A stretch of DNA of 64,000 nt from Minisyncoccota bacterium. GTDB taxonomy: Bacteria > Patescibacteriota > Microgenomatia > UBA1400 > PJMF01. Shown in pieces: positions 1,324 to 57,353 of this stretch. The stretch is from assembly GCA_003173865.1 (NCBI GenBank), contig PJMF01000012.1, forward strand, positions 8,908 through 72,907, written 5' to 3'. The translations under genes and the position numbers were made by a program. The notes below the pieces were generated by a model. It ran no database searches. It saw nothing but the letters and a program-made list of their open reading frames with translations, and was not told where the DNA came from. Each line of letters begins with the position of its first letter. The first letter of the stretch is position 1.

Positions 1324-1333
1324 AAAGGCTCCT

Positions 1334-2311: not shown

Positions 2312-2314
2312 TTC

Positions 2315-4944: not shown

Positions 4945-4956
4945 TTTTTAACTTTT

Positions 4957-9382: not shown

Positions 9383-10243
9383 ATGGACTCTTCGTCGCTC
9401 AAAAACTTTATTCAAAATATTACTGAAAAAATGCTTGAAGCAGGCGAAATTGCAGAAAAGTTTCAAGGCAAGGTTGCAAATATAAAAAAAGAAGTCGATC
9501 TCGATAATAATGCTCCTCAAAGAATTAAAGATCGAAATCAAGCAAAAACCGAGATTGATGAAAAAGTTCAAGAAATGCTTTTAGAGTGTGTGAAAGACAC
9601 TCTTGGGATCAACAATATTAGAATTGATGCCGAAGAAGATACAGCATTGAAGCAACTTTTTCCAAATGAAGCAGCTCAAGTAACCATCGTGATTGATCCT
9701 ATTGATGGTACCTTAGAGTATCTGAATGGAAGTGATAGGTATTCGATTAACGTTGGGGTCGTTTCTCATGGAGAAATGCTTGCCGCTTTAATTTATTTTC
9801 CGAAACTGAAAAAACTTTATTTCTTGGATAATCAAAAAACTTCCTACGAAGTAGCCTATACTTCTAGTCTAGAAGTTAAAGATAAAAAAGTTCTAAAAGG
9901 AAATGAACAACCGCAAAGAAATAAAGTATATGTAAATAATCGGGTGGCCACAGATTTAGTAGACAACTTAGAAAAAGCAGATTTTTCAGTAATTCAGGAT
10001 GATGGAGAAGTATCTTGGCCAGATGCGCTTTTAAAATGCATTTCTGGTGAATACTTTGCGAGTATTTTTCATAGTCCTCAAACAAGGGATGTTTTACTTG
10101 GAGCCTTAATTGAAAACTTAGAAAATGGATGGAAAGTGGACTGGGAAGGAAATAAAATTACTTGGCCAAATGGAGGGAGAATTCCTAGAGTGATTTTTGG
10201 TACAGGAGCTCTTCCGCGAGAAATTTTTGAGAGTTTAGAGTAA
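9383..10243 (+). CDS. Inositol monophosphatase / CysQ-like phosphatase family protein
   Basis: DPIDGT motif and overall length fit the IMPase family. ATG at 9383; the 9359 start in the ORF track is a TTG. Confidence 0.65.
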   Translation: MDSSSLKNFIQNITEKMLEAGEIAEKFQGKVANIKKEVDLDNNAPQRIKDRNQAKTEIDEKVQEMLLECVKDTLGINNIRIDAEEDTALKQLFPNEAAQVTIVIDPIDGTLEYLNGSDRYSINVGVVSHGEMLAALIYFPKLKKLYFLDNQKTSYEVAYTSSLEVKDKKVLKGNEQPQRNKVYVNNRVATDLVDNLEKADFSVIQDDGEVSWPDALLKCISGEYFASIFHSPQTRDVLLGALIENLENGWKVDWEGNKITWPNGGRIPRVIFGTGALPREIFESLE

Positions 10244-11167: not shown

Positions 11168-11578
11168 TTAATTAGTATTGTTTAACACAATACGTTCGAA
11201 CACTGTCTATCACTACCATCGTGATCAATGTTTGTGATAAACTAAATGATAATATGTCAAACCCTTTAGAAAATGAAAGACTAGATCGTCCAGGTATGGG
11301 AGGGAGAAAAACAATCTTGTACGAAACTGATCTCGATCTTATTCCTGGAGATAAAGTCGTTGTGACAGAACATAAAAATGATTTAGATAAAAGAATTGAG
11401 AAACCAAGAAGAAAATTAGGAGTGCCACTAGATGACGGAAAACCAAACAACAATGATCAGAAGTAATTAAGATAAGAGAAGGAATTTTCCTTTACTTCAG
11501 GTAGTTAAAACCATTGCACAACATGACTTCAGTTCTTCATCTTCAAAGTAGTGCTCGAAGAGTAATGAAGAGTTTGAT

Positions 11579-13433: not shown

Positions 13434-13512
13434 GAACGGACGATTGCAATCTTAAACATCTGAGGTAAACTGAGAATTTGCTGAAAAGGCAGGCTGCTAA
13501 CAAGTTTTTAAT

Positions 13513-14346
13513 ATGCGTTACTTAATCATTAATGCTGACGACTTTGGCATGAGCCAAGAGATTAACGAAGGCATCAAGCGGGGCATCGAAGCAGGTGTGA
13601 TCACCAGCGTTTCGGTCATGGTGAACATGCCATTTGCCGATGACGCAATCAAGTTTTTAAAAAAACATCCTGAAGTCTCTGTTGGATTACATTTTAATAT
13701 CACCGAAGGATCCCCAACTCTCAAACCAAAACAAATTACGACTTTGCTGAGGGAAGATAATAGTTATTTTCACTGGAGTTCTTTAGTTATTAAATTGCTG
13801 CTCGGTCAATGTTCTTTAGACGAAATTAATCTGGTGCTCATCAGTCAATATCGGAAGTTGAAGAGTACCGGCCTGAAAATTACACATTTAGATAGTCATC
13901 ATCACATTCATCTATTTCCCACCATTTTTAAAGGATTTGTTGACTTTGCGCATCGGGAAAAAGTAGCTGCACTGCGGTCGCGCCGATTTAATCTCTGGAA
14001 CTTAACGAGCAGTCTACGTAAAGGAATCACTTCCAAACAATGTTTAATTTTATCGATGTGTCTTTTTAATAATTTCTTTACTAAGAACTCGCTTGACCTC
14101 TCCGGCGGAAATAGCATCTACGACTTAAACTGGGATCCTAATCTCACTGAAGCAAAGTTTCTCCGCATTATCCAAAACTTCGGCCCTGGTGTAACGGAAA
14201 TCATTTGTCATCCTGCCATCGCAAGTAAAGATGGCAACGAAAAGTTTTTACGACCCAGAGAACGTGGGCTTAACTTACTGCTTAGTCCAGCCTTTTTAGC
14301 AGAGTTGAAAAAAAATAAAATCAAGTTAATTTCTCGAAACGCCTAG
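13513..14346 (+). CDS. YdjC/ChbG-family carbohydrate deacetylase
   Basis: N-terminus LIINADDFGMSQEINEGI is the hallmark of the YdjC family. Confidence 0.8.
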   Translation: MRYLIINADDFGMSQEINEGIKRGIEAGVITSVSVMVNMPFADDAIKFLKKHPEVSVGLHFNITEGSPTLKPKQITTLLREDNSYFHWSSLVIKLLLGQCSLDEINLVLISQYRKLKSTGLKITHLDSHHHIHLFPTIFKGFVDFAHREKVAALRSRRFNLWNLTSSLRKGITSKQCLILSMCLFNNFFTKNSLDLSGGNSIYDLNWDPNLTEAKFLRIIQNFGPGVTEIICHPAIASKDGNEKFLRPRERGLNLLLSPAFLAELKKNKIKLISRNA

Positions 14347-28698: not shown

Positions 28699-30393
28699 TT
28701 ACGCCTCACATGCATACACACACATTTTCGATTGATTAAATTTCTGCGCAGCATTCGTGCTGTGCTGATAATAGAGTGTCTTGATCTTTGACTCCCAAGC
28801 AAAAATGTACAAGTTATTAATATCCTTGGCTGGAACGCTTGGGTTAATCATCAAGTTCAATGACTGACCTTGGTCAATATACTGTTGACGTGTTGAAGCC
28901 TGATCAATAATCGCAATCTGGTCGATTTCACAAAATGTCTTGAACACTTCTTTTTCCTGTTCTGATAAAAACTCGAGATGTTGGACTGATCCGTCATTAT
29001 TACGAATTGAGTTCCAGACTTCTTTGGTATTCTTGCCTTTTTCCTCGAGCAACTTCTCGAGTGCCGGGTTTTTGATCGTCACTTTAATTTTTGCGATGTC
29101 TTTGACGTAACAGTTCGACCAAATTGGCTCAATACTTTGAGAAACTTGCCCAAGAATAAATGCTGATGATGTGGTCGGCGCAATTGCGTTGAGCGTGGTG
29201 TTCCTTCTACCGTATCCTTTCAGCAGTGAAGGCTCTCCAAACTCTTTTGCTAAATCTGCAGAGGCTTGGTACGACTTCTCTCGAATTGATTTGAAGACTT
29301 TGGCGTTGAGTTTTTTGGCTTCAATGCTCTCAAATGAAATCATTTTCGATTGAAGGTATGAGTGCCAACCCAACACTCCCAGTCCTAACGCTCGATTCGC
29401 AACTGCGAAGTTATATGCGCGTTCCATGAAGTAAAATGCTCTGCGGTCACTCTCTTTTTTAGAATCCCGGAAGTGTTCAAGCTTCTGAATAAACTCAGTC
29501 ATGACTGCATCGAGGAAGTACACCATGGTTTCGACTGCATCCGTATCTTTCCACTCGTCGTAATGTAAAAGATTGAGCGAAGATAAGTCGCAAACAAATG
29601 ACCACTCATCGTTCGTGGGTAACATGATTTCTGAACATAAATTACTGTGACGAATTGGCAGTTTTTTATCTTTGTATACGTCGACTGTGTAATTATTGAC
29701 GTTATCTTTGAAAAAGATATACGGATATCCCATCTCCACGCGGCGCTGAATCACTTTTGCCCAAATTTTGCGCTTCTTTGTATCGCCAGCAATCATTTCT
29801 TCCATAAATTTATCTGTTACCGTGACGCCATGCGTAAGCTCTTGAATGGGGTTGCCTTCTGTCCCAATCTCCAAAAATTCTTCGATATCTGGATGCTCAA
29901 CTGGCAAATAGGGCGAGAAAGCACCTCGCCGAGTGGAGCCTTGACTCACCACATTAATAATGGTTTCAAACAACTTCATGAAGTGCACAGATCCGGATGA
30001 AACTCCATTATCCGTAATGTCTGCCCCACGAGGACGTAAATCACCAAAGTAAGCACCCGTCCCGCCACCAAACTTCGTCATCATTCCCACCTCTGCTTGG
30101 GCATATAAAATTTGACTCATACTGTCCGAAATGTGCACGGAAAAACAACTAATGGGTAACCCTTTTTCCAGTCCAAAATTGGCCCAGATTGGAGTTGATA
30201 AAGAGTAGTACCCTTTTGCCATGTAGGTATAAAATTTATCCGCAAACCCTTTTTTCTTGAGGATTTTTTCAGCACGCTTCGCAATAAACTCAATGCGCTC
30301 CTCTGGAGTCACTCCTTCGGCGAGGTAGCCTCGATCGAGGAACTTGCGGCTGTTTTCATTTAACCAGGTGATTGGGGTGGTGTTTTTTTTCAT
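28699..30393 (-). CDS. nrdA: Class I ribonucleotide reductase alpha subunit lacking an ATP cone
   Basis: Catalytic N-x-C-x-E motif HSNLCSEI and a C-terminal Cys pair (CVYAC) for thioredoxin shuttling. No ATP-cone at the N-terminus. AAGGAG Shine-Dalgarno upstream. Confidence 0.8.
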   Translation of the reverse strand: MKKNTTPITWLNENSRKFLDRGYLAEGVTPEERIEFIAKRAEKILKKKGFADKFYTYMAKGYYSLSTPIWANFGLEKGLPISCFSVHISDSMSQILYAQAEVGMMTKFGGGTGAYFGDLRPRGADITDNGVSSGSVHFMKLFETIINVVSQGSTRRGAFSPYLPVEHPDIEEFLEIGTEGNPIQELTHGVTVTDKFMEEMIAGDTKKRKIWAKVIQRRVEMGYPYIFFKDNVNNYTVDVYKDKKLPIRHSNLCSEIMLPTNDEWSFVCDLSSLNLLHYDEWKDTDAVETMVYFLDAVMTEFIQKLEHFRDSKKESDRRAFYFMERAYNFAVANRALGLGVLGWHSYLQSKMISFESIEAKKLNAKVFKSIREKSYQASADLAKEFGEPSLLKGYGRRNTTLNAIAPTTSSAFILGQVSQSIEPIWSNCYVKDIAKIKVTIKNPALEKLLEEKGKNTKEVWNSIRNNDGSVQHLEFLSEQEKEVFKTFCEIDQIAIIDQASTRQQYIDQGQSLNLMINPSVPAKDINNLYIFAWESKIKTLYYQHSTNAAQKFNQSKMCVYACEA

Positions 30394-30413: not shown

Positions 30414-31676
30414 CTAAAATAAATCCTCGCTCGTAATACTTTTACTCCTTTTGTTGTAATTAATTGATCGTTTCACAAAAAAGTCTCCGTGCTTGGTCGC
30501 AATAATTTCATCGTCAAACCACTCGGTTTGTTCAAGCAGTTTTTTATCAATCGAAAAAAGACTCTGCAACCCAATACTCTTGAGCGAGTTATTCAGACGA
30601 TTTTTAATAAACTCTTTAATCACTGCTTTTGGCAAAAAGTCTAGTTCACCTTCTTCAAAGATCCAGTCGATGATGTCACTTTCTGCGTCATAAGCAGTCT
30701 GACATGACTGCAGAATCAGCTCTTTAAAGTGACCATCAAACCAGTCCGGATTTTCTTCTTTGATAATATTAATCACGTCAATTCCAAACAGCCCATGAAT
30801 TTGTTCTTCTTTAGAAGTAGCCTCGACCGCGTTCGAAATCCCTTTAAACATATTTTTAAATTTATTAAACGACATGATGATCAAAAATTGTGAGAAAAGT
30901 GAAACGTGCTCAATAAAAAGCGAGAAAAGTAAAATCGAACGGGTATACTCTTTGTTATCTTCACTTTTTGCAGTCGCGAGCGCAGTACTTAAGTAGTGAA
31001 TCCGTTCATTCATCACGGGAATCTTGAGAATGCGTTCGAACTCACTGTTCAATCCGAGCACTTCTAGTAAATGAGAGTACGCATCAAAATGCCTGACTTC
31101 ACTCTCCGCAAATGTATACCCGACTGCACCAATTTCGGGCTTCGGAAGTTTTTTAAATAAATCGCCCCAGAAAGTTTTGACTGAAACTTCAATCTGGGAA
31201 ATTGCCAGCATCGTATTCTTCAACGCATTTCGTTCGGCTTTCGTGGTGTTTACTTTAAAATCTTGGATGTCCGCTGTGTAGTTAAACTCTGTGTGCAACC
31301 AATACGAGTGACGAATAGCGTCTACATACTCAGCCAATTGAGGATATTCATAAGGCTTGAGAGGAACTCTCTTTTTGAAGATATCTTTTTTGCGTTCAAG
31401 TCGTTTTTTTTCGCGATACAGAATGTACGCTTTCGCCACTACGAGAAAATTACTTTCCATTAAGGTTTCTTCCACAATGTCTTGAATTTTTTCGACTGTT
31501 AAAGGATGTTTGTTACTTTTCTTCAGTTTAATTTCTACCTTCAGCGAAACTTTTTTGGCATCTGGTTTGGTGCCCACTTTGACGGCTTTCATTGCCGCCC
31601 AAATCGCTTTGGTGATTTTTTCGTTATTGTAGGTTTCTAAAGTACCATCTCTTTTTTCGATTTGCGTTATCTTCAT
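30414..31676 (-). CDS. nrdB: Class I ribonucleotide reductase beta subunit with N-terminal ATP-cone (NrdBi-like)
   Basis: N-terminus IEKRDGTLETYNNEKITKAIWAAMKAV is an ATP-cone. Ferritin-like ExxH iron-ligand pairs (ESEVRH, EEQIH). ATG at 31676 with an AGAGG Shine-Dalgarno. Confidence 0.75.
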   Translation of the reverse strand: MKITQIEKRDGTLETYNNEKITKAIWAAMKAVKVGTKPDAKKVSLKVEIKLKKSNKHPLTVEKIQDIVEETLMESNFLVVAKAYILYREKKRLERKKDIFKKRVPLKPYEYPQLAEYVDAIRHSYWLHTEFNYTADIQDFKVNTTKAERNALKNTMLAISQIEVSVKTFWGDLFKKLPKPEIGAVGYTFAESEVRHFDAYSHLLEVLGLNSEFERILKIPVMNERIHYLSTALATAKSEDNKEYTRSILLFSLFIEHVSLFSQFLIIMSFNKFKNMFKGISNAVEATSKEEQIHGLFGIDVINIIKEENPDWFDGHFKELILQSCQTAYDAESDIIDWIFEEGELDFLPKAVIKEFIKNRLNNSLKSIGLQSLFSIDKKLLEQTEWFDDEIIATKHGDFFVKRSINYNKRSKSITSEDLF

Positions 31677-31680
31677 AAGT

Positions 31681-31900
31681 GCCTCTATAACAAAAAGCCA
31701 CCTTCGAGAGGTGGACAAATACGACTGCATACTCCAGCCGATGTTCCTTGCTCGAGAAATTAAAAGAAGATTCAGGCAGTCTGACTTATCCGTTTAAGGA
31801 CATTACAGTTACGGCATAGCCGTGGAATCGCACCACACTTCCCCTGACGGGCTGAGGTCTGATTCTCAGTATCTTCTGCTATTTAGTTTCTGTAATCAAT
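31681..31900 (-). promoter_or_regulatory. Putative cobalamin riboswitch with intrinsic terminator, in the 5' leader of nrdB-nrdA
   Basis: Minus-strand leader contains AGGGGAAGUGUGGUGCGAUUCCACGGCUAUGCCGUAACUGUAA and AAGUCAGACUGCCUG. These resemble the cobalamin core (AGGGAA..GGUG.AA.UCC..GCC.ACUG) and the B12 box (AGYCAGG..CC.GCC). A CCACCU-loop-AGGUGG hairpin plus a U-run follows at 31689-31714, just before the Shine-Dalgarno. Confidence 0.45.
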
Positions 31901-38885: not shown

Positions 38886-39815
38886 TTACTGAATTGTTTC
38901 CCACTGATAATGCGCGAAGAGCCAATTAATCAGCCAAGTCGTTTCTGTAAAACGACTTTTACTCCCCAGCACGACCACAATCACTTGATGACCATTTCGA
39001 TCAATTTCAGTAATTAAATTTTCACCAGCAAACTCAGTGGTTCCGGTCTTCACCCCGACTACGCCGTCTACTACACCTAGCAGTTCTTGCGTCGTATTTA
39101 GTTGATGGGCATACTGACCAGTCACATCATGGATTGTGGTTTGTCTAGTTCCCACGACTTCACGCAGGATGGGGTCTTTCATCAGTTCATTTGCCAAGAT
39201 GGCGAGATCTCGCGCTGTAGTCAGTTGCGTTTGATCATCTAAACCAGATGGATTTTTAAAGATTGTTTTTGTTAAGTGAAGTTCGGCCGCTTTTTGGTTC
39301 ATGTCGTGTACAAAACCTTCGTACCCCTGGGGGTGATTATTTGCAAACACAAAAGCGGCGTCGTTACCCGAAGGAATTAAAAGTGCCTTGAGCAGCTCAT
39401 GCACTGTAATTTGCTCACCAACATGAAAATGAACTGTTGAGCCAGTGGCAAATGCTTCTTCGCCCACGGTAAGAACTTTATCGAGTGGATATAACTGACG
39501 CACAACCAACGCTGTCATCATCTTGGCAGTGGAGGCCGGATAGTGAGCTTGGTCAGCATTTTTTTGAAAAAGGACCGACCCCGATTGACGATCCATGACA
39601 TACGCCGAATCTGCTGTTAACGCGGCGGGTGAAAAATCAGCAGGTACTGCCGAGGGAGTCGCGACATCTTCAACAAAGAGGGGAAGCGTGACGTGCTGAA
39701 TTAATGGCAACGTTGGTGGAAGAGGCTGCACCGAGGAATGTTCACTTGGTTCTTCAGCTGACGTGAGGTATACAGGAACAACTAAAAACACCGCCAAAAG
39801 TAACACAATACTCAT
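38886..39815 (-). CDS. dacC: D-alanyl-D-alanine carboxypeptidase (peptidase S11, PBP5/6-like)
   Basis: Signal peptide followed by the active-site STAK (SxxK) motif in YPASTAKMMTALVV, and an SGN motif (IPSGND). Confidence 0.8.
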   Translation of the reverse strand: MSIVLLLAVFLVVPVYLTSAEEPSEHSSVQPLPPTLPLIQHVTLPLFVEDVATPSAVPADFSPAALTADSAYVMDRQSGSVLFQKNADQAHYPASTAKMMTALVVRQLYPLDKVLTVGEEAFATGSTVHFHVGEQITVHELLKALLIPSGNDAAFVFANNHPQGYEGFVHDMNQKAAELHLTKTIFKNPSGLDDQTQLTTARDLAILANELMKDPILREVVGTRQTTIHDVTGQYAHQLNTTQELLGVVDGVVGVKTGTTEFAGENLITEIDRNGHQVIVVVLGSKSRFTETTWLINWLFAHYQWETIQ

Positions 39816-39866
39816 CCACTGATCTACGCGCAGCTTTGGTACATTTTGCACAGAGATTATTGTAGC

Positions 39867-48402: not shown

Positions 48403-48430
48403 TTGACAATCCCAGACAGTCCATTATAAT
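48403..48430 (+). promoter_or_regulatory. Sigma-70 consensus promoter (TTGACA, 16-nt spacer, TATAAT)
   Basis: TTGACA at 48403-48408 and TATAAT at 48425-48430. The sequence CAGTCC...ATAATTT is shared with the promoter at 57184. Confidence 0.5.
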
Positions 48431-48437
48431 TTCCTAC

Positions 48438-48518
48438 ATGTTCGCAGGTCTTTTATACTCTATCTCTAGTCTTCTTCTCCTTATTATTATCAAGGCGCAT
48501 CTCGCTTGGGAGAAGTAG
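48438..48518 (+). CDS. Candidate leaderless small ORF (26 aa, hydrophobic: MFAGLLYSISSLLLLIIIKAHLAWEK)
   Basis: ATG lies 7 nt after the -10. The ORF ends before the intrinsic terminator at 48543-48567. Could instead be a leader peptide or an sRNA. Confidence 0.3.
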   Translation: MFAGLLYSISSLLLLIIIKAHLAWEK

Positions 48519-48542
48519 TATTAAAGTAAAAAGAAATACACA

Positions 48543-48567
48543 CCCCTCTCAAGCAGAGGGGTTTTTT
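48543..48567 (+). terminator. Intrinsic terminator hairpin (CCCCTCT-caagc-AGAGGGG plus T6), 17 nt upstream of the 48584 start codon
   Basis: Perfect 7-bp GC-rich stem followed by TTTTTT. Nearly identical to the hairpin at 57327-57353. Confidence 0.55.
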
Positions 48568-48583
48568 GTTTTAGAAAGGTTTT

Positions 48584-51277
48584 ATGAGTAGTAACAAAGG
48601 AACTGCGGAATCTAGGATTCTTGCTTCCAGTGAAATTTTTCATCAAGAAGAGCAGTTAAAGCAGGCGGCAGATAACTTATCTAAACGTTGTTTTAATGCA
48701 ATGTTTAACAGAGCCGTTCAAACATCTGGAAATCTTCAAGAAACAAAGCTACCTAAAAAAGGCCAAAAAGGCGAATCTATTCAAGCAAAGCCTATGCTGG
48801 GATACCGTCGACCAGGCGAGTTTTTTTCTGTCCAAGGTATAGATTCTCAGCAAGAACTTGAAGCTATTTTTAATAGTCTTATTCTCAATGCCCTGCGTAA
48901 ACTCGCAGCGGAAGCAACAACTCCCGAAGAGCGAAAATTGAAAACCGAAATGCTAGGGATGGTGTTACCCGATTTTATTAGAGCATTAGTTTTAGATGGC
49001 GAGTTCATTGATCATATTCATGCAGATGATATTTCAAACATAGTAGATATTGCTTTAGATTGGTTCCTCCATCCGGAATTAGTCTCTCTGACACAAATTA
49101 AAATCGGTTTTGGAGGTAATGAGGAAGCGAACAGTCGTATGCCTGCTTATCCAATCAGTGCAATTCGTACTGCCGAAAGAGTCCAAGAAACTTTTGGTAG
49201 ACATCGAAACTGGGCGCTCTTAAAAGAGTTATATAAACTGACCGAAAAATCTGAAGACATTCGCCAGGCTTTAGAACTACACACAGAAGAATTTCTTTTT
49301 GTGAAAAGACAGGATGATGCTTCAATACCAACTCACGATTCAAGTACATACAGTGAGTTTGTACGAGACGAGCTTGCGAACTGTCAATATGTACGTGTTC
49401 AAGATGTTACTATGATCTTGCTAAAAACTTTTGCAGCTCTTGGTCACCCTTTAACCGAAAAAGAACAGGTTTCTCTGGCCCAAAAATATCACTTCACGGA
49501 CCAAACTCCTACTTTAGTATTTTTTAATGCTGCTCACGCAGCAATTACTATTAACTCGATGAATCGAGAGGCGGTCTTACAAACCCGCGAATACAACAAA
49601 GCTTTGATCACTGCCTACATGTCGGAATTTCATCCAGATCTTCCTATGCCTATATTTCAAAATGATCGAGATTGGAGTGAACATGACTCTTTCACCAAAC
49701 TCATGATTCTCTATGCCCAATTTGTCATTGAAAGTCATAGAGACGAAATGGGTGGAGTCGATGATCAGTTAGAGTCATTTGAAGCAAATCACCGTCAGAA
49801 TGCAAAAAGTACTCATTATGGAATGAATCCTGCCAAAATTTACGGATCTCTTCATCCATATTTCTTTGGTGATTCTCCCAATACCGAGAGCGGTGACCAA
49901 CTTCCTTTCAACAACGTGATGACTCCTCTTTTCCAACCTCGTCATATCGTTGGCCATCAAGGTGTCCCTGAGGTTACTTTTGGTGTCTATAGAGACGTTT
50001 TCAAAAGACATGCCAATCTACGAGATCTAGTGGAATGGTTAAAAAGAACAGAAAATTTGTCAAAAACATCCCTCTCTCAACTAGCAATAGAAGTTGATAC
50101 AAAGGTCATGGAAGCAGAAACACCTTCTTATGGCAAGAGGTTAATCGACTATATCACTAAAAAGGTGATGCCAGAAGCCAATATTGTTTCAACATCCAAA
50201 AACAAATTGCTGGAGAAGGCAAAGCATTTAAGGAATGAAGAGAACTCAGAAGTAGCCAGACAAGAATGGCTCTCCTTTTGTGCAGAACTTCAGTCTGAAG
50301 ATATTTTTGCTAAAACTGGAGTGACTGCTGACGAAGTAAGTAATGCGTTAATTCAAGTTCAAACTTGGCAGAGTGAAGCAAGAAATTTAAACGAACGTCT
50401 CTTTGCAACTACTGACCCAGATCAGCGTTTTGAAATCACAGAGCAATTGGCCGATTCATCTATTCCTATTCCAGTGCGAAGCACTGTGCGTATTGGAACA
50501 TCTGTGGGAAAACATGCCACTTATTATCTCAAAGAAGGTGATACACCTTTAGAAGGTTTCCACTCGGCTGATCAAATTTCATTAGTAAACTATACTCAAC
50601 GCTTTACTGCTGCAAGTTTGAATAAGCGCACTTTAGAAGGAACTGTTCCTTACACACAAAAAAATGTCTTGCCTGCTCTCATTGATAGTGACACCTCAAG
50701 AGGATGGGATATTTTTGCAGCCGCTTTAGCCGATCAATTGGGAACTATCTTTGGTGAAGAAGTATTTGCTCAATGGATGTCGGAAGACGTTGATAAAATG
50801 GCGAATCTTTATCGAGGCTCTGTTCAGGAAGAGCTAACATTTCAAGGAGATAAAGTAGAAAAAGCATCTCACGTTCATAATTTTCTTAGTCAAGGTATTC
50901 AAAACATCGCAGAAGAAAGAATTCAGGTCATCTTGGATGAAGCAGCACATCAAGGTATTACTTTAGAAACTCAGGGAGTCCGCCACTATGTATGGTCCGC
51001 CTTAGTTGGCTCATGGACCACTGAAGGTGGTAAGCAAGCGATTACTGATTCAGAAGTCATTGTCGACGAGATTCGAAGCACTATGTCCGACTTTATGGTC
51101 ATACTTCACGATGTCGCTCAGGCAAAAGGATATCATGGTTCTTCTGAAGAATTGGCCAAGGATGCTGGATGGATTGCTCTAGCAGAAAGAGAGTATCAAA
51201 AGGTAATGAGAAAAATATTCGCTGAGGATCAAGTAAACAGCGACGCTGTGCTGTTTGCTGCTGTGGCTGAGATTTAA
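48584..51277 (+). CDS. Large hypothetical protein (897 aa), soluble, no recognisable domain
   Basis: Long uninterrupted ORF with a GAAAGG Shine-Dalgarno. No TM segments and no known catalytic motifs recognised by eye. Confidence 0.6.
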   Translation: MSSNKGTAESRILASSEIFHQEEQLKQAADNLSKRCFNAMFNRAVQTSGNLQETKLPKKGQKGESIQAKPMLGYRRPGEFFSVQGIDSQQELEAIFNSLILNALRKLAAEATTPEERKLKTEMLGMVLPDFIRALVLDGEFIDHIHADDISNIVDIALDWFLHPELVSLTQIKIGFGGNEEANSRMPAYPISAIRTAERVQETFGRHRNWALLKELYKLTEKSEDIRQALELHTEEFLFVKRQDDASIPTHDSSTYSEFVRDELANCQYVRVQDVTMILLKTFAALGHPLTEKEQVSLAQKYHFTDQTPTLVFFNAAHAAITINSMNREAVLQTREYNKALITAYMSEFHPDLPMPIFQNDRDWSEHDSFTKLMILYAQFVIESHRDEMGGVDDQLESFEANHRQNAKSTHYGMNPAKIYGSLHPYFFGDSPNTESGDQLPFNNVMTPLFQPRHIVGHQGVPEVTFGVYRDVFKRHANLRDLVEWLKRTENLSKTSLSQLAIEVDTKVMEAETPSYGKRLIDYITKKVMPEANIVSTSKNKLLEKAKHLRNEENSEVARQEWLSFCAELQSEDIFAKTGVTADEVSNALIQVQTWQSEARNLNERLFATTDPDQRFEITEQLADSSIPIPVRSTVRIGTSVGKHATYYLKEGDTPLEGFHSADQISLVNYTQRFTAASLNKRTLEGTVPYTQKNVLPALIDSDTSRGWDIFAAALADQLGTIFGEEVFAQWMSEDVDKMANLYRGSVQEELTFQGDKVEKASHVHNFLSQGIQNIAEERIQVILDEAAHQGITLETQGVRHYVWSALVGSWTTEGGKQAITDSEVIVDEIRSTMSDFMVILHDVAQAKGYHGSSEELAKDAGWIALAEREYQKVMRKIFAEDQVNSDAVLFAAVAEI

Positions 51278-51307: not shown

Positions 51308-52429
51308 ATGAAAACAGACATCATTGAAGTATTGACTAAGCTTGTTTCATTCCAAACAGTGTCAGCTACAAGTGATCAAGAAAAAAACGCATTCCACGCT
51401 CAGCAATTTGTTGAAGCACACGAATACATCAAGCATTTATTTCAAGACACTCCCTTAATTGTTGAGACTATTGAAACTGCTGGTAAAAAAACTCTTACTG
51501 TTTCAAATAAAAAAACGATCGCTCCTGATATTGCAATGATTGTGCATTTAGACGTAGTCCCAGCCGGGGAGAGCTTATGGACAATGCGACAAGAGGGCGA
51601 TAGGCTCTTTGGTCGAGGCGTTTCCGACATGAAGGGCAGTATTACCGCCTGTTTAATAGTGATGAGAGAATTAGTAAAAATGAAATCAAATGATTTGCCT
51701 TCAGTCATGTTAATTATCACCCCCGACGAAGAAATCGGTGGTGCCTCAATGAAATTTCTACGTGACAAATTAAAATACTCTCCTCAATTTGTGCTTTGTC
51801 CTGACGGCGGTTATGGGTGGAAAATGGTTACGAATGCAAAAGGATGCCTACAGTTTCACTTTCAAACAACTGGAAAATCTGCTCACGCCTCACGACTCGC
51901 TGAAGGAGTGAATGCAGCAGAACCCCTGATTGAATTGTACCAGCAGCTACGTCGTGTTTTTCCCCATCAAAACGAAGCAGCTTGGGAAACAACAACTTTT
52001 AATTTAGGAGCCTTTCATACAGGTCAAGCCGCTAATCAAGTTCCAGATTTGGCAGAAATGAAGCTAGACTTTCGTTTCACTAATCAAAGTGAACGAGCGC
52101 TAATTGAGAAAGAACTCCAATCTGCAATCAACGCAAGTCCGTTAGAAATTAAAACTCTATCAGTCGTTGATGGTCATTTTTTTGAATCCAATCCTAATCA
52201 TCAAATCACGAAAAAATTCCTTTATTGTGTAGAAAAAGTGATCGGCAAACAGATTGAATTTGTAAAAGAGTACGGTGCTTCTGACGCAAGGTTCTTTACA
52301 GACGTGCCAACAGTTGTTTTGATCGGAGACGGGAAATATCATCATTCTTCAAAAGAAGAAATGTCTTTAACGAGTTTGGAACAATATGCCGAAGCAGTAC
52401 TAACATTTATTAAGAGTTATCGCCAATAA
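51308..52429 (+). CDS. M20-family metallopeptidase/deacylase (ArgE/DapE-like)
   Basis: HLDVVP metal-ligand motif and GRGVSDMKG catalytic region. Confidence 0.8.
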   Translation: MKTDIIEVLTKLVSFQTVSATSDQEKNAFHAQQFVEAHEYIKHLFQDTPLIVETIETAGKKTLTVSNKKTIAPDIAMIVHLDVVPAGESLWTMRQEGDRLFGRGVSDMKGSITACLIVMRELVKMKSNDLPSVMLIITPDEEIGGASMKFLRDKLKYSPQFVLCPDGGYGWKMVTNAKGCLQFHFQTTGKSAHASRLAEGVNAAEPLIELYQQLRRVFPHQNEAAWETTTFNLGAFHTGQAANQVPDLAEMKLDFRFTNQSERALIEKELQSAINASPLEIKTLSVVDGHFFESNPNHQITKKFLYCVEKVIGKQIEFVKEYGASDARFFTDVPTVVLIGDGKYHHSSKEEMSLTSLEQYAEAVLTFIKSYRQ

Positions 52430-53381
52430 GGGTGAGAAAATTTGGCATCAAAACCTCGCGAGGTCTATTCGTTTTTCTTTCCCAGATCTGTCTTTGAAGG
52501 TCAGCCAATCCCTGCGTACCACGTTCTTGAGTAATGGCTTGAGCTCTTAATAAAACTATTGCTGCGAGCATCGCATTCGTTATTTCAGGATGATTTTGAA
52601 CAGAGACAATGGGCCTATCTTTATAACTCAGCATTTGATTCTTGCCGGCACAATTAGATGCAAGTACATCGGCATTTTTGGGTTTTTGAGAAACATGTTG
52701 CGAATGAGTCGCTGAAATAGTGAGAGAATCTCCTTCATAACAATGAAGTAAAGGTTCCGATTTCGCCCTTTCAGTCAGTTGAATATCAACAGGGCCAATC
52801 TCCCGTTCTCTATTACCTCCAGTAGAAGTCATCCAAGAAACCTCTCCGCCCTGACAAAACGCAAACAACTGATGACTAAAACAAATGAGTAAACTCGGAG
52901 TTTGACTTAACGACAACACTTTATCAAAAGCAAGTACCCGTCTAATCCAAGGAGCATCCTGATGATGCATATCATGGATTGTTGTGACCATTGCCTCGGA
53001 TCCAGACATAATCACCCCATCGTACTCTTCCAACTGACGAGGAGGAGATGTTTCACCCTGACTTGCATGCCATACTTCAAAACGCTCATCATGTGGACTA
53101 AAACCAAGTTGGTAACGAAAAATATCGGAAACCGTATGATTACCCGAATGACCTACAGCGCCTATTTCGAGTAATTTTCTGCGCTCAGAGTTGAGTGGAG
53201 CAAAAAGACCATTTCCCCACCGTAATGCTAACTCTACAAACAAGATTTTAGATTGAGTCCTCAATTTATCGGCAACAACTCTTATCATTTCACGATGATG
53301 TGTTTCAGTATCTGCAATCTCTTCCTCACAACATTGTTTCTCTTGCTGAGTTAATGGAGAACTTATTTCTGCGAATGCCAT
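52410..53381 (-). CDS. Class I glutamine amidotransferase-like / peptidase C26 (gamma-glutamyl hydrolase-like) protein
   Basis: Nucleophile elbow LLICFSHQLF (Cys-x3-Gln) and a downstream NHPE His-Glu pair. About 100-aa N-terminal extension. Confidence 0.6.
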   Translation of the reverse strand: MAFAEISSPLTQQEKQCCEEEIADTETHHREMIRVVADKLRTQSKILFVELALRWGNGLFAPLNSERRKLLEIGAVGHSGNHTVSDIFRYQLGFSPHDERFEVWHASQGETSPPRQLEEYDGVIMSGSEAMVTTIHDMHHQDAPWIRRVLAFDKVLSLSQTPSLLICFSHQLFAFCQGGEVSWMTSTGGNREREIGPVDIQLTERAKSEPLLHCYEGDSLTISATHSQHVSQKPKNADVLASNCAGKNQMLSYKDRPIVSVQNHPEITNAMLAAIVLLRAQAITQERGTQGLADLQRQIWERKTNRPREVLMPNFLTLIGDNS

Positions 53382-53384
53382 ACA

Positions 53385-54494
53385 TTAATCCAATATTAGT
53401 TTCTCTACCGTATATTTCTTCAGTTTCATTTCATCGACTTCAAAACCCAACCCAGGCGCTGTCGGCACTTGAATATTTCCCTCGAGGTCAACAGTAAAAC
53501 TGTCTTTTACCAAATCATCTTTGTAGTAAAAACTATTTGGAGACATGTCTGCGGGATCAATAAAGTTCGGCAACGAAGCAACTGCAATGTTAAACGCTCG
53601 TCCAATACCTGTCTCAAGCATGCCACCACACCATACCCCCACATGTTGGGCTTGGCAAAGATCGTGAATTTTTTTACTTTCTAAAATACCGCCTACACGA
53701 CCGGGTTTGATGTTAATAATTTTGCAAGCACCAAGAAAAAGTGCTTTACGTGCATCTTCCACTGACAAAATGCTTTCATCTAAACAAATTGGTGTTTTAA
53801 TTTGCTTTTGCAGCACAGAGTGATCGACAATGTCGTCATCTCCAAGTGGTTGCTCGATCATTGTCAGATTATATTGATCAAGTTCTTTAAAAATCTCGAT
53901 CTGGTCGAGTGTAAACACAGAGTTTGCATCAACCATCAAGGGAACGTCACCAAACCTCGCACGCACTGCTTTGACCAGCTTGACGTCCCAACCAGGCTTA
54001 ATTTTCAGCTTCATACGCTGATACCCTTGAGAAATTCTTAACTCAATTTCTTCCAAAGTCGCCTCAATAGAATCCTTAATCCCAATACTTTCTCCTGCTC
54101 CAATCTTTGCGCGCGTGCCACCAAGCAAAGCCGACAGAGAACGTTCTTCTTGCAAAGACTGGACCATCAATAATGCTGTCTCTAAACCTGTTTTCGCAAA
54201 ATTATGTTTTTTAATAATTTTTAATTCATCCATGACCGCTTGGACTGTGGTGAACTCCTTATTCAAGACGAGCGGCGCAATATAATCGCGCAACACTAAC
54301 ATACAAATATCAGTCGTATCTGGCTTATAAAATGGATACGGCATTGCAGCGGCTTCCCCATATCCAATGAGTCCATCTGCCATTTCAACTTGAACGATCA
54401 CGGTGGCTTTACTTTCCAATTTCCACGAGCTCACTGCAAAAGAAGTGACCATCGGCACATCGACTTTGTAGAGAGTAATTTTTTTTATTTTCAT
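53385..54494 (-). CDS. Enolase-superfamily enzyme (MR/MLE family; dipeptide epimerase / OSBS / N-succinyl-amino-acid racemase-like)
   Basis: KIKPG catalytic lysine pair. Metal ligands in DANSVF, MIEQPL and CLDES. N-terminal capping domain. Start overlaps the upstream stop (ATGA). Confidence 0.8.
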   Translation of the reverse strand: MKIKKITLYKVDVPMVTSFAVSSWKLESKATVIVQVEMADGLIGYGEAAAMPYPFYKPDTTDICMLVLRDYIAPLVLNKEFTTVQAVMDELKIIKKHNFAKTGLETALLMVQSLQEERSLSALLGGTRAKIGAGESIGIKDSIEATLEEIELRISQGYQRMKLKIKPGWDVKLVKAVRARFGDVPLMVDANSVFTLDQIEIFKELDQYNLTMIEQPLGDDDIVDHSVLQKQIKTPICLDESILSVEDARKALFLGACKIINIKPGRVGGILESKKIHDLCQAQHVGVWCGGMLETGIGRAFNIAVASLPNFIDPADMSPNSFYYKDDLVKDSFTVDLEGNIQVPTAPGLGFEVDEMKLKKYTVEKLILD

Positions 54495-56125
54495 GAAATG
54501 ACAACCTCTCGTAATTGAATTAATTCTCTGAGTGCACGTTCTAGAGACATTGTTTTTTGTTTTTCATTTACAAAAGCGAGGGCTCGATCAGCACCATTTT
54601 GTTTTTGTTGTAACACCCACTGTGGATAAGCCAAGAAAGTTTGCTCTTCTGTAGATAATCCTTCGGCAGCTAAATCCAGGATTCTTTGTGTAAATGTATA
54701 AACCGAAAGATCCTCTACTACTCCGTCTAATCCTTGTTCAATAGCTACATCGCGTAACTTACTGAGTTGTCCCCAAGGAAAATGTTCAATGTATTTTTTT
54801 GTTTTATCTAAATTGCGAATTAAGCCAGCTTGCAATGCCGATGGACTTGTTGCCACCGAAAGTGCAATTTCTTTTCCCGCAGCATAAAGCTCTCGATCAG
54901 GAAGATTTGATCCAGGCGCTCTGCCCTCGATATACATAAAATGCGCATGTGCTTCAAAGATTTCTTCTACTTTCATTTGCGAAGTTTCTTTGCACGCTGC
55001 AACAAACTCCGCAACTGGAAAACCATCTTTTTTCAATGAATAACGAATACGACCTCCTGCTTCAAACTGCGCAAACTGCAGTACTTCCATATGCGCAATT
55101 TCTGGCGAAACTTCATACGCTTTAATAGCAGTTCCCGTAATAATCTCCGATAAATTCCGAGCTTTCCAAGTCTTCCCATCTAAATAATCGAGGACTGGTG
55201 GATTCCCATCCACGATCATGATGTCATCTTTTGCGTTTTTGTAACCAACTGCGCTCTGACTTGGCATCACAAAATAAATACCACTATCGCCACCAAACAT
55301 CCATTGAAAATATTGTGCGAGATTTTGAAATGGTTTATCGGGAAAACGAATCAAACGTCGATCACCAGCAACAGTTGACCCACTCATCATGCGCTCCCAC
55401 ATCATCAAACGATTTTCTTTGTATTGAGAAATCTTTCCTTCCTCAAAAGGACTGTTTGCAAAAAGTGCAATATTGGCCGCACTCGCACCGATGATCACAG
55501 TAAGTGCATCAGCTGCTTGAGAAACAGCAACTTGAGTACTGGGACTATTTTGCGCTCGCGCATCAATTCCAGCCGAATGATCCCAACCACGCTGCCACAA
55601 AAAGTCATACACTCCTTTCGGCACGACAAATTTTTTGTATGTCTTCATGTCTCTTGGAGCAAGTGGGTGAATTGATAGATTTATGGCAAAAGCATCTTCA
55701 GCTTGTAACGCCTTTTGAGTAGTTGAAATATCAAGTTGAATCGCTTTATGTAATTCCTGGAGCGTTTCGAATGGTGGCAAAGCTGTCTCTAATAAATTGA
55801 ATCCATTGTCCAAACCTTGCTCACCAAGATCTTGGCTGACAACTCCTACCGCAACTGTTTTCCCTTTTTTATCCTTTAAATTGTGAAGATGATCAAATGT
55901 GTGACGATGACTTGCCTGTTTGCTTAATTCATTAAAAAACACATCAGTAACATGATGAGAACTCCCGTCCTTTTTAGAAACGATAGTTTTCTCAAGTTCA
56001 GCACCAAATTTTTCGTTTTTCTTGACTAATTTTGACACAGGTGATTTTAACATATCTTTGCTTGAATATTTTGCTTTTTTAAAAAAATGCTGTACAATTC
56101 TGGGACATGTCGAGGCATGAAACAT
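54491..56125 (-). CDS. Glutamate--cysteine ligase family protein, plant/proteobacterial GshA type
   Basis: ALFANSPFEEGK closely matches the plant-type GCL segment ALFANSPFTEGK. Also NEKFGAELE and NGFNLLETALPPFETLQELH resemble the GTEHEKFGFE and SGAPLETLHQ regions. Alternative ATG at 56053. Confidence 0.6.
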   Translation of the reverse strand: MFHASTCPRIVQHFFKKAKYSSKDMLKSPVSKLVKKNEKFGAELEKTIVSKKDGSSHHVTDVFFNELSKQASHRHTFDHLHNLKDKKGKTVAVGVVSQDLGEQGLDNGFNLLETALPPFETLQELHKAIQLDISTTQKALQAEDAFAINLSIHPLAPRDMKTYKKFVVPKGVYDFLWQRGWDHSAGIDARAQNSPSTQVAVSQAADALTVIIGASAANIALFANSPFEEGKISQYKENRLMMWERMMSGSTVAGDRRLIRFPDKPFQNLAQYFQWMFGGDSGIYFVMPSQSAVGYKNAKDDIMIVDGNPPVLDYLDGKTWKARNLSEIITGTAIKAYEVSPEIAHMEVLQFAQFEAGGRIRYSLKKDGFPVAEFVAACKETSQMKVEEIFEAHAHFMYIEGRAPGSNLPDRELYAAGKEIALSVATSPSALQAGLIRNLDKTKKYIEHFPWGQLSKLRDVAIEQGLDGVVEDLSVYTFTQRILDLAAEGLSTEEQTFLAYPQWVLQQKQNGADRALAFVNEKQKTMSLERALRELIQLREVVIS

Positions 56126-56202
56126 TTACTTTTAGTTTTTTCTTTTTTACCAAACTTCCTCAAAGGGAGCTTTGCTAATTGAACTGAAAAAGCAACGCAA
56201 TA

Positions 56203-56225
56203 ACTCCCTAAAAGGGAGTTTTTTT
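56203..56225 (+). terminator. Terminator-like hairpin (ACTCCCT-aaa-AGGGAGT plus T7) between divergent genes, 20 nt upstream of the 56245 start; possible attenuator
   Basis: Stem plus U-run. An upstream AGGGAG at 56164-56169 could pair alternatively with the CTCCCT arm. Confidence 0.4.
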
Positions 56226-56244
56226 ATTTTAAAAAGGAGCAAAA

Positions 56245-57174
56245 ATGATTTCAACTCAAGAAGCAACTAGTCAACGAATCTCTGAAATGGCGCAAGTTAT
56301 TAACAACGCGCTATCCGCAACTCAAGAAATGATGCCCAAATTGATTAATAAAACAGTTCCAGTTGAAAATGCCTCAGGAACCGACATTATTATGGGTATC
56401 GGTCTCGTTTCGAACGGCAAAGTGAGCAGGGGCTTAAATCCGAGTGCCATTCCAATGGCCATAGCAGCCACCAATTTGCAGCGTGAAATCCAACAAAATG
56501 ATTATCGAAGCAAAATTAAGGTGTTAATTGCGGACACGTACGCAAAACAATTCCACAGAGAATATATTAATGCTGCTTACGCCGATGACGATGAACTTGA
56601 TCGAGATCCCGTAGCAGAAGCTGCTGTTTCGATCGAGCAAGCTCTAGGATTGCTGTTCATTGCTCTCGGAGCAACCGCAGATGTTGAAATTATTCGCACA
56701 TCGGATCTTGAAACTCCTAATTTTGAAACTTATGAAGAACAAGAAACCTATCACCTCAGTCGCGCTGTTGAAGAAGGTGCCGGTCTCATCGTCGGTTGGT
56801 CAAGCGAACGAGCACCATTGCCAGGAATGCCACCAGTTCGCGATGAAACCGTGTTTCATCGACATATGGATAAAGAACATCCAGATCTTCGCGGTATGTC
56901 AGGGAGGTTATACACCGTCGAAGGCCTTAGTTTAACTGACCAAATAAAAGGTCAGGCTCAATATGTCCCTCCTTACTTCACGACTCGAGTTGAAGCAGCT
57001 CTGGGCACAATTGTCGATTTAGAAGGACTAATAGACAAAAAAAACCAATTAAAAAATTTCTTTAAAGAGGTGGGGAGAGCACTTCGTAAAATTTTGCCAG
57101 GCGAAAAGACGGATGGGAAAGGTGATTTGCAGATCGTTCATGAACTGGTGAGAGAAATCGCTACTCAGGTGTAA
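56245..57174 (+). CDS. Hypothetical protein (309 aa)
   Basis: ORF with an AAGGAG Shine-Dalgarno. No recognised motif. Confidence 0.5.
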   Translation: MISTQEATSQRISEMAQVINNALSATQEMMPKLINKTVPVENASGTDIIMGIGLVSNGKVSRGLNPSAIPMAIAATNLQREIQQNDYRSKIKVLIADTYAKQFHREYINAAYADDDELDRDPVAEAAVSIEQALGLLFIALGATADVEIIRTSDLETPNFETYEEQETYHLSRAVEEGAGLIVGWSSERAPLPGMPPVRDETVFHRHMDKEHPDLRGMSGRLYTVEGLSLTDQIKGQAQYVPPYFTTRVEAALGTIVDLEGLIDKKNQLKNFFKEVGRALRKILPGEKTDGKGDLQIVHELVREIATQV

Positions 57175-57296: not shown

Positions 57297-57326
57297 AAAT
57301 GTAAAACATTTATTTAAAAATCAAAA

Positions 57327-57353
57327 CCCCTCTCCAAACCAGAGGGGTTTTTT
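57327..57353 (+). terminator. Intrinsic terminator (CCCCTCT-ccaaacc-AGAGGGG plus T6), 20 nt before the 57374 start
   Basis: 7-bp GC stem plus a U-run. Near-identical to the hairpin at 48543. Confidence 0.55.

Follow-up and report, generated by a model that had tools for sequence, protein, structure and literature searches.

The conversion of D-amino acids into their L-enantiomers by acylation, racemisation and deacylation has been described for a pathway consisting of a GNAT succinyltransferase, a racemase of the N-succinylamino acid racemase/o-succinylbenzoate synthase (NSAR/OSBS) subfamily and an L-desuccinylase of the M20 family (bioRxiv 10.1101/2022.03.03.481873). The D-to-L pathway of Geobacillus goes back to Sakai 2006, as cited in PMC12006748 and bioRxiv 10.1101/2022.03.03.481873. 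Characterised NSARs favour hydrophobic N-succinyl-amino acids (PMC12006748). Here we report on a gene module within a 64,000-nt stretch of DNA from a Minisyncoccota bacterium (GenBank assembly GCA_003173865.1, contig PJMF01000012.1, positions 8,908 to 72,907), which is called the window throughout and has a G+C content of ~41%. The module combines a ligase of the glutamate-cysteine ligase (GCL) fold with an NSAR/OSBS-type racemase and an M20-type deacylase, and it is flanked by predicted leader-peptide attenuators in front of two genes that belong to no known family. The acylate-racemise-deacylate inversion pathway itself is already known; the new parts are the ligase family, the two co-regulated families and the leader attenuators. 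We estimate the probability at about 0.5 that the module performs a starvation-induced, ATP-driven acylate-racemise-deacylate salvage of hydrophobic amino acids.

Pairs of an NSAR and a deacylase serve the dynamic kinetic resolution of amino acids. Most amino-acid biosynthesis is thought to be missing from bacteria of the candidate phyla radiation (CPR, Patescibacteria), whose amino-acid supply is poorly understood. The module described here is a conserved chromosomal candidate route to hydrophobic amino acids in these bacteria. A second related system is the DgcN-DgcA route of D-glutamate, in which an N-acetyltransferase is combined with an N-acetyl-D-Glu racemase (NF042940) and in which likewise a D-amino acid is acylated and then racemised by an enolase-superfamily enzyme.

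The original prediction concerned four open reading frames (ORFs) at 51308-56125 of the window, all of which were confirmed. The ligase (54491-56125), the MR/MLE-type racemase (53385-54494) and a GATase1-like protein (52410-53381) are encoded on the minus strand, and the M20 deacylase/peptidase of the ArgE/DapE type (51308-52429, plus strand) converges on this trio as described, the 3′ ends of the M20 and GATase genes overlapping by 20 nt. Translational coupling by ATGA overlaps had been proposed throughout the minus-strand genes; it exists between the ligase stop and the NSAR start, while the NSAR and GATase genes are separated by a 3-nt gap (TAAtgtATG). Two further ORFs were missed in that description, as were the attenuators, which are located beyond or at the margin of the described region (48403-48583 and 56093-56244). 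The gene U897 (48584-51277, plus strand) is co-conserved with the module and precedes the M20 gene in the same operon with a gap of 30 nt, and U309 (56245-57174, plus strand) is divergent from the ligase gene. Because U897, upstream of M20, is a member of a family, c3, that recurs in related modules, the usual module is in the window split between two converging operons.

The MR/MLE enzyme belongs to the NSAR/OSBS subfamily within the enolase superfamily, and racemase activity is predicted for it. It matches Pfam MR_MLE_N and MR_MLE_C (the latter with E 9e-51) as well as TIGR01928, the NSAR/OSBS model with the family name o-succinylbenzoate synthase, at 342.7 bits (cut-off 200.65). It had been regarded as either a dipeptide epimerase or an N-acyl-amino-acid racemase. 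The second assignment stands, whereas dipeptide epimerase was rejected, as models for L-Ala-D/L-Glu epimerases scored only 64-92 bits versus cut-offs of 343-500. The DgcA model (NF042940) yielded 89 bits at a cut-off of 400. The protein is 44% identical to the N-acylamino-acid racemase (NAAAR) of Amycolatopsis (1sja), and in the alignment to the latter the catalytic residues K161-x-K163 and K263 and the metal ligands D189, E214 and D239 are all kept. R266 is kept too, a second-shell residue whose role as a marker of the NSAR-capable subfamily has been described (PMC12006748). The 20s specificity loop is altered compared to the Amycolatopsis enzyme (F23S, G24W). A role as menaquinone OSBS appears unlikely, since no men genes were found near the module among the window genes scanned and the flanking genes are housekeeping genes, encoding an aminoacyl-tRNA synthetase, RecJ, the CCA-adding enzyme and SecDF. 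Some of these housekeeping neighbours are shared by two of the related loci (L009 and L012).

The ligase had been called a plant-type GCL, which is correct for the fold and incorrect for the family. Its ALFANSPFEEGK motif is alignable with plant GCL, and a Foldseek search with its AlphaFold2 (AF2) model (pLDDT 90.8) returned the plant GCL 2gwc as top PDB match (E 3e-16, TM 0.60/0.73, identity 15%), followed by YbdK, GshA, PafA/Dop and glutamine synthetases in this order. At the sequence level, Pfam GCS2 (PF04107) is matched with 36.8 bits versus a cut-off of 21, and the sole match among PDB sequences had an E value of 0.53. The curated models for plant-type GshA (TIGR01436, 14.8 bits, cut-off 463.15), EgtA (TIGR03444, 15.6 bits, cut-off 370.8) and YbdK (TIGR02050, 20.4 bits, cut-off 176.4) all fall far below their cut-offs. 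Hence, the ligase is a superfamily member outside the YbdK family; within the carboxylate-amine ligase fold it forms a family of its own, so far uncharacterised.

Among 29 members of this family, the invariant residues include E43, E45, E113, N224, P226, R239, W243, E400 and R402, and H153 is nearly invariant. By analogy, E43, E45, E113, E400, R402 and H153 may constitute metal and ATP sites. With plant and proteobacterial GCL (GshA; 2gwc) and with YbdK the family has in common the fold, the ANSPF-x-EGK...R...W block and conserved acidic, His and Arg residues, and ATP-dependent amide formation would be expected. It differs from these enzymes in the identity of only 15%, in its length of ~500 aa, in extra C-terminal helices and in the absence of gshB among the window ORFs scanned. 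Moreover, its partners are racemases, NSAR in CPR bacteria and the alanine racemase Alr in Proteobacteria. Residues 1-34 are disordered in the model and homologues begin near residue 38; the true start of the ligase is therefore probably M25, at 56053.

The M20 protein matches Pfam Peptidase_M20 and M20_dimer, and its relatives in the PDB are ArgE, DapE and CPG2. Against TIGR01910 (ArgE/DapE) it scores 159.1 bits, which is below the cut-off of 217.6, as are the M20 proteins of the syntenic clade with 189-192 bits. The known ArgE/DapE-type M20 enzymes are L-selective. The GATase1-like protein had been assigned to the peptidase C26 type. It passes Pfam PF00117 (43.1 bits, E 4.7e-11), and its score for Peptidase_C26 of 18.5 bits is just under the gathering threshold of 20.5. 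The solved structure nearest to it is that of gamma-glutamyl peptidase 1 (GGP1, 9k7i; E 9.6e-11), with ICFSHQ aligned to ICFGHQ and HPE to HPE, so that the Cys and His-Pro-Glu motifs correspond to those of GGP1 and PuuD-type hydrolases and the Cys-His-Glu triad is intact. In contrast to GGP1, the window protein possesses a 90-aa N-terminal extension, and the similarity (E ~1e-10) covers ~200 residues only.

To place these genes in context, 86 loci were examined in total, of which 22 were CPR-type. The best homologues of the ligase were located in metagenome-assembled genomes (MAGs) of Levy-, Gottesman-, Davies-, Woese-, Amesbacteria and Saccharibacteria, which makes a CPR/Patescibacteria genome of the Microgenomates type the almost certain source of the window. 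The NSAR gene is situated immediately downstream of the ligase gene in 21 of the 22 CPR loci, where the two ORFs frequently overlap or abut, and an M20 gene is inside the module in 17-19 of them. Because the adjacency recurs in 21/22 independent loci, the ligase-NSAR association is far beyond chance. The co-conservation of ligase, racemase and M20 in relatives, on which the idea of a functional module depended, was thus found. The GATase had been counted among the core parts as well, a view we do not share: it occurs only in the window and in L016 (2/22 loci), in both in the same operon as the ligase, and is an accessory part. The usual CPR order is a c3 or Aminotran_3-like gene, ligase, NSAR, a c4 gene or an aminotransferase gene, and M20. 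Here, c4 designates a second family without known function (313-380 aa) between NSAR and M20. Among close relatives the NSARs are 64-70% identical and the ligases ~50%. Some loci also carry genes for pyridoxal phosphate (PLP)-dependent aminotransferases, a PLP decarboxylase or a radical SAM enzyme.

Outside the CPR, the ligase family is present in Bordetella, Achromobacter, Azospirillum, Desulfonatronum and others. In these proteobacterial loci the ligase is ~36% identical to the CPR form and NSAR is absent. The neighbours comprise an 815-aa protein of the major facilitator superfamily (MFS, 46 loci), an ABC substrate-binding protein and a dCache-SpoIIE phosphatase, and in at least 22 loci a PLP-dependent alanine racemase stands beside the ligase. 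With NSAR as partner in CPR bacteria and Alr in Proteobacteria, the family is tied to two unrelated kinds of racemase, and the Alr linkage is an independent tie of the ligase family to D-amino acids. This offers a handle on the ~500-aa "glutamate-cysteine ligase family proteins", which are common in the four named genera beside alanine racemase and are annotated only by superfamily. The ligase cluster is seen in L004, in L086 (Bordetella bronchiseptica) and in more than 40 proteobacterial loci; in Bordetella it adjoins genes of type III secretion and of STAS/anti-sigma-type partner switching.

Two observations on individual CPR-type loci are added here. The MAG records of L007, L008, L011, L013, L016, L021 and L023 are labelled "Micrarchaeia archaeon" or "uncultured Gammaproteobacteria" despite a typical CPR module; these labels are probably binning or labelling errors. 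Downstream of the M20 gene, L002 (11674-11892) and, in identical form, L003 (5316-5534) contain an ORF of 72 aa with a C-terminal Glu (…RRTESE), which recalls the tails of the carriers LysW and Pup; the ORF is not conserved in the other loci.

Intergenic terminator-like hairpins just before a gene start occur only twice in the whole 64-kb window, and both flank the module. The first belongs to the U897-M20 operon. A promoter at 48403-48430 (plus strand; TTGACA, 16 nt, TATAAT) with 12/12 matches to the sigma-70 consensus precedes an ORF of 26 codons at 48438-48518 (plus strand) encoding the leader peptide MFAGLLYSISSLLLLIIIKAHLAWEK, which contains 7 Leu and 4 Ile residues, including the run LLLLIII. 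Its ATG is located 7 nt after the end of the -10 box, and the mRNA is probably leaderless. The terminator hairpin ACCCCTCTC-AAGCA-GAGGGGT with its T-run (48542-48562, plus strand) ends 22 nt before the ATG of U897 and is not the terminator of the upstream gene, because that gene is divergent. The Leu-codon stretch (region 1) pairs with a G-rich stretch at the end of the ORF (region 2), and the alternative 2:3 pairing is formed by CUUGGGAG and CUCUCAAG. The calculated energies are -12.8 kcal/mol for 1:2, -8.8 kcal/mol for 2:3 and -15.0 kcal/mol for the 3:4 terminator. In Rfam, Phe_leader (29.3 bits) and also Trp_leader match this element, both sub-threshold.

The second element precedes U309. 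Here, a TACAAT -10 box (56093-56098, plus strand) is followed after ~9 nt by the ORF of leader peptide MSRHETFTFSFFFFTKLPQRELC (56107-56178, plus strand), which contains 6 Phe residues and the run FFFF. The terminator hairpin AACTCCCT-AAA-AGGGAGTT with T-run is at 56202-56220 (plus strand), 25 nt before the ATG of U309, and U309 possesses its own terminator at 57323-57351. Here the 2:3 antiterminator and the 3:4 terminator compete at -14.4 and -12.7 kcal/mol, respectively, and 1:2 has -10.0 kcal/mol. The Rfam family Phe_leader (RF01859) matches 56116-56228 with 41 bits (gathering threshold 55) and E 7.5e-6.

In both elements a pyrimidine-rich codon run pairs with the G-rich end of the ORF, and this end likewise complements the 5′ terminator arm (region 3). 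Both ORFs are near-leaderless, beginning only a few nt from where transcription is predicted to start. The likeness to the enterobacterial pheA/pheST, leu and ilv attenuators (RF01859) comprises the tandem codons (FFFF; LLLLIII), the 1:2 hairpin, the 3:4 terminator with U-run, the complementarity of region 2 to region 3 and the position of the element directly before the regulated gene. The window elements differ from them in their scores of 41 and 29 bits versus the gathering threshold of 55, in being near-leaderless, and in their occurrence in a CPR bacterium before genes without known function. We conclude that U897-M20 and U309 are probably under leader-peptide attenuation, with a predicted response to amino-acid supply.

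Equivalent leaders exist in ~12 related loci, and their composition follows the downstream gene. They were assessed by folding of each locus, duplex energies and ORF statistics; a covariance model added nothing to this, as the leaders were not in register in the MAFFT alignment and RNAalifold yielded no more than 4 pairs. Leu/Ile/Val-rich leaders (MKTKVLSIIFVLFILITA; MKNLVLFFIILLIFVLV; MKNVMSQILVVLITCS) head the operons at c3 or AT3-like genes, which are followed by ligase, NSAR and M20. The c4 genes are located behind Phe-run leaders (FFFF to FFFFFF) in L008 (4323-4430), L013 (10661-10772), L014 (10663-10776) and L015 (11682-11798), and so is that of L011, where in addition a c3-like paralogue is preceded by a Tyr run (YYYY); the two L011 elements span 9897-10037 and 11213-11346. 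In L010, a HisC-like aminotransferase gene is behind the Phe run FFFFF. The complement between regions 2 and 3 is a perfect 12 bp in L007 and 8 bp in L010.

In L011 and L012, a gene for citramalate synthase (TIGR00977, 509 bits, above cut-off) adjoins the module behind an Ile-rich leader (L011 8169-8288 and L012 9705-9811; …IAIII…, …QIIREIII…). As an Ile-pathway gene behind an Ile leader it is an internal positive control, and it points to control of this gene by ribosome-mediated attenuation in CPR genomes. For the statistics, a leader ORF was defined as a short ORF with at least 4 consecutive Phe, at least 5 consecutive Ile/Leu/Val or at least 4 consecutive Tyr codons. Of the 5 c4 genes 4 had such an ORF, as did half of the 8 c3 genes (4), compared to none of 94 control intergenic regions of the same loci. 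Terminator hairpins before genes were found at 12 of 20 module-first genes versus 20 of 240 other genes (p = 1e-7), the latter 20 being mostly module-internal. When four whole loci were scanned with Rfam, Phe_leader was the top non-tRNA family, precisely at the predicted sites. A text search of the literature found no paper on leader-peptide attenuation in CPR bacteria, for which these leaders indicate that classical ribosome-mediated attenuation is at work. An extra Phe_leader-like element (33.9 bits) was noted in L014 at 13463-13581 (minus strand), before an opposite-strand gene of 194 aa just downstream of the module M20.

U897 and U309 are co-regulated with the module, each by its own amino-acid-specific leader. 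Neither has a match in Pfam or NCBIfam. The U897 family comprises only 59 cluster representatives among 1.84 billion proteins, and two word-indexed homologue searches with U897 yielded only 2 proteins; in ~10 CPR loci its homologues are directly upstream of the ligase. Pfam scans of 45 family members and a profile search of PDB sequences returned nothing. Foldseek with the AF2 model of U897 (pLDDT 87.6) brought up TrpRS and TyrRS recurrently and weakly (best E 0.019, probability 0.84), mixed with spurious matches to helical parts of ABC transporters, a weak hint that the modelled protein might contain a class-Ic aminoacyl-tRNA-synthetase-like core. U309 fills the regulatory niche that is held by the c4 family in related loci. 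Homology of U309 to c4 or c3 was not demonstrable (hmmsearch E 0.19; hhalign E 0.076, probability <1%), and the relation between c3 and c4 themselves is only weak (hhalign probability 54%, hmmsearch E 7e-5). The leaders label two function-unknown protein families as Phe-, Tyr- or Leu/Ile/Val-responsive, which is a rare clue for function assignment.

We infer as follows which acyl donor and amino acids are used, in which stereochemical direction the module runs and what U897 and U309 contribute. When charged tRNA-Leu/Ile or tRNA-Phe is scarce, the ribosome would stall in the leader, the antiterminator would form and the downstream genes would be transcribed. The ligase would then spend ATP on coupling a carboxylate, most likely the gamma-carboxylate of glutamate, with the alpha-amino group of an unusable free amino acid (D-amino acid + Glu + ATP -> gamma-Glu-D-amino acid). 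This amino acid would most likely be a D-enantiomer, such as that of Leu, Ile, Val or Phe. NSAR would invert the alpha-carbon, converting gamma-Glu-D-amino acid to gamma-Glu-L-amino acid, and an L-selective M20 enzyme would free the L-amino acid and regenerate the acyl donor, Glu; in the window genome the GGP-like peptidase may also release the L-amino acid. The cost in ATP would make the inversion irreversible. U897 (c3) and U309 (or c4) would be additional parts.

In classical cases, leader-peptide attenuators turn on genes for the supply of an L-amino acid once that amino acid runs short. As the leaders signal a shortage of Leu/Ile/Val, Phe or Tyr, they suggest a direction towards the L-form and these amino acids as likely substrates. 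Cysteine, proposed initially as one option in the form of gamma-Glu-Cys, is not what the attenuators point to. To our knowledge, every characterised member of the GCL/GS/PuuA-type/PafA fold group activates the gamma-carboxylate of glutamate, which together with the GGP-like accessory hydrolase makes gamma-glutamyl the probable acyl group; the closeness of the GATase to GGP1 fits this idea. N-gamma-glutamyl and N-succinyl groups differ by a single amino group. As an acyl donor, a LysW- or Pup-like carrier was considered and rejected, since a comparison of the loci showed no conserved family of small ORFs in the module.

The logic of a module that builds, epimerises and hydrolyses a gamma-glutamyl compound, as first suggested, remains the best reading, and the GGP1-like GATase fits it, but it needs recasting as a variant of the inversion pathway. 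The combination had not been recognised as a described pathway; it is a variant of the GNAT-NSAR-M20 route (bioRxiv 10.1101/2022.03.03.481873). A text search of the literature found no paper on this particular gene combination. With the Geobacillus operon the CPR module shares the racemase subfamily (TIGR01928, R266), the class of the M20 partner, the acylate-racemise-deacylate logic and the hydrophobic substrates to be expected; the NSAR-M20 linkage of that operon is met again in the window and the 17-19 loci mentioned above. In place of GNAT, however, there is a GCL-fold, ATP-dependent ligase, the donor for which would be a free carboxylate, probably Glu, instead of succinyl-CoA, and c3/U897, c4/U309 and leader-peptide attenuation are added. 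No match to an acetyltransferase family (GNAT) was obtained for the genes between 44.5 and 63.7 kb of the window. From DgcN-DgcA the module differs by another acyl donor and acylating enzyme and by a regulation that points to hydrophobic amino acids, not to Glu. CPR bacteria lack the tricarboxylic acid (TCA) cycle and hence succinyl-CoA, and for this reason an ATP-dependent ligase in place of an acyl-CoA transferase suits them. The module thus shows how a succinyl-CoA-dependent pathway could be rebuilt around an ATP-dependent ligase in TCA-less organisms. For biocatalysis, a ligase that prepares the NSAR substrate from free amino acids could be useful.

Several points weigh against a salvage by inversion in this form. 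In the window, a leader precedes only U897-M20 and U309 and not the ligase-NSAR-GATase operon; in most other loci ligase and NSAR do sit behind a leader. The antiterminator of leader 1 is weak (-8.8 vs -15.0 kcal/mol), and equilibrium folds of this element with the ribosome footprint masked still form the terminator, the antiterminator appearing only if the 3′ arm is withheld. All Rfam leader matches are below the gathering threshold, those in the related loci having 41.1, 33.9, 30.8 and 30.7 bits versus 55. The M20 protein of the window is a divergent lineage, only ~25% identical to the syntenic clade, the members of which are ~44% identical to one another. Judged from its altered loop (F23S/G24W), the racemase may have an unusual substrate, and the acyl group could instead come from succinate, another acid or the C-terminus of a peptide. 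Finally, PLP aminotransferases, a decarboxylase, a radical SAM enzyme and two families without known function are not needed for a three-step inversion, and the pathway may be more elaborate.

These extra enzymes bear on an alternative in which the module is biosynthetic, with a gamma-glutamyl-D- or other N-acyl-D-amino acid (a metabolite, signal or envelope part) as the end product and M20/GGP serving turnover or a separate step. Ligase and racemase are indeed the tightest pair, the variable accessory PLP enzymes, radical SAM enzyme and unknown families resemble those of small biosynthetic clusters, and the proteobacterial ligase is accompanied by alanine racemase and an MFS exporter-like protein. 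Yet leaders rich in Leu/Ile/Val/Phe imply induction at scarcity, an odd moment to spend those amino acids; the deacylase is co-conserved in 17-19/22 loci, and no exporter was found in the CPR loci examined. We regard a biosynthetic role as unlikely, although worth keeping in mind.

The same starvation-type leaders would agree with a salvage of pre-formed N-acyl or gamma-glutamyl amino acids or peptides from the host or environment, in which NSAR and M20/GGP free the L-form from both stereoisomers and the ligase is left for re-capture or an uptake resembling the gamma-glutamyl cycle. CPR bacteria are generally auxotrophic scavengers, and the window contains both an M20 and a GGP-like hydrolase. 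This explanation finds no role, however, for the ATP-dependent ligase with its translational coupling to NSAR in 21 loci, and the hydrolases are the less conserved parts, which renders it rather improbable.

The chemistry of the module is symmetric, and it might in principle run from L to D for peptidoglycan or other uses, with an L-specific ligase, NSAR and a D-specific deacylase. The window does encode a peptidoglycan enzyme, an S11 D-Ala-D-Ala carboxypeptidase (38886-39851). We consider this direction very unlikely, as leaders with Leu/Ile/Val/Phe codons report a shortage of charged L-aminoacyl-tRNA, the D-amino acids of peptidoglycan are Ala and Glu, not Leu or Phe, and known ArgE/DapE-type M20 enzymes have the opposite selectivity. 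There is scarcely any case for ligase and GATase forming a glutamine-dependent amidotransferase, in which ammonia from the GATase would attack the acyl-phosphate of the ligase to give a carboxamide: the triad is intact and the operon is shared in the window and L016, but the GATase is missing from 20/22 loci, its closest solved relative is a gamma-glutamyl peptidase and not a synthase subunit, and in the window NSAR separates it from the ligase. Classical gamma-glutamylcysteine/glutathione synthesis, or a menaquinone OSBS, would accord with the GCS2 match, the GCL fold and the family name of TIGR01928 and can practically be dismissed, given 15-20 bits for the GshA, EgtA and YbdK models versus cut-offs of 176-463, a wide margin, no gshB-like gene among the scanned window ORFs of at least 150 aa and no men genes in the window scans, the synteny with NSAR and M20, and leaders that are rich in Leu/Ile/Phe with at most one Cys codon each; the original prediction had already set the locus apart from classical glutathione synthesis, rightly as it seems.

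Starting again from the salvage of hydrophobic amino acids by inversion, a wider picture may be drawn tentatively, which we would not yet rely on. The module could be part of a widespread, leader-gated rescue regulon for hydrophobic amino acids in CPR bacteria. In it, the GCL-fold ligase would gamma-glutamylate D-amino acids for NSAR, and U897/c3 and c4/U309 would be amino-acid-specific enzymes, possibly with a class-I aminoacyl-tRNA-synthetase-like nucleotide-binding core, each under a separate attenuator for Leu/Ile/Val, Phe or Tyr. The ligase family of Bordetella, Achromobacter, Azospirillum and sulfate reducers would then make an amide containing D-Ala for export.

Two further features of the window lie apart from the module. 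Genes for GDP-mannose dehydratase-type enzymes and for glycosyltransferases of the GT2 and PMT (dolichyl-phosphate-mannose-type) families are located at 337-8440, which suggests glycosylation of protein or envelope. A sub-threshold match to the AdoCbl-II cobalamin riboswitch (27.1 bits, gathering threshold 36.5, E 2e-4) is present at 31768-31860 on the minus strand and is followed by a terminator-like hairpin at 31698-31714. It is upstream of the genes for the small (ATP-cone fused) and large subunits of a class-I ribonucleotide reductase (30414-31730 and 28699-30393), the start of which may be at 31676 instead.

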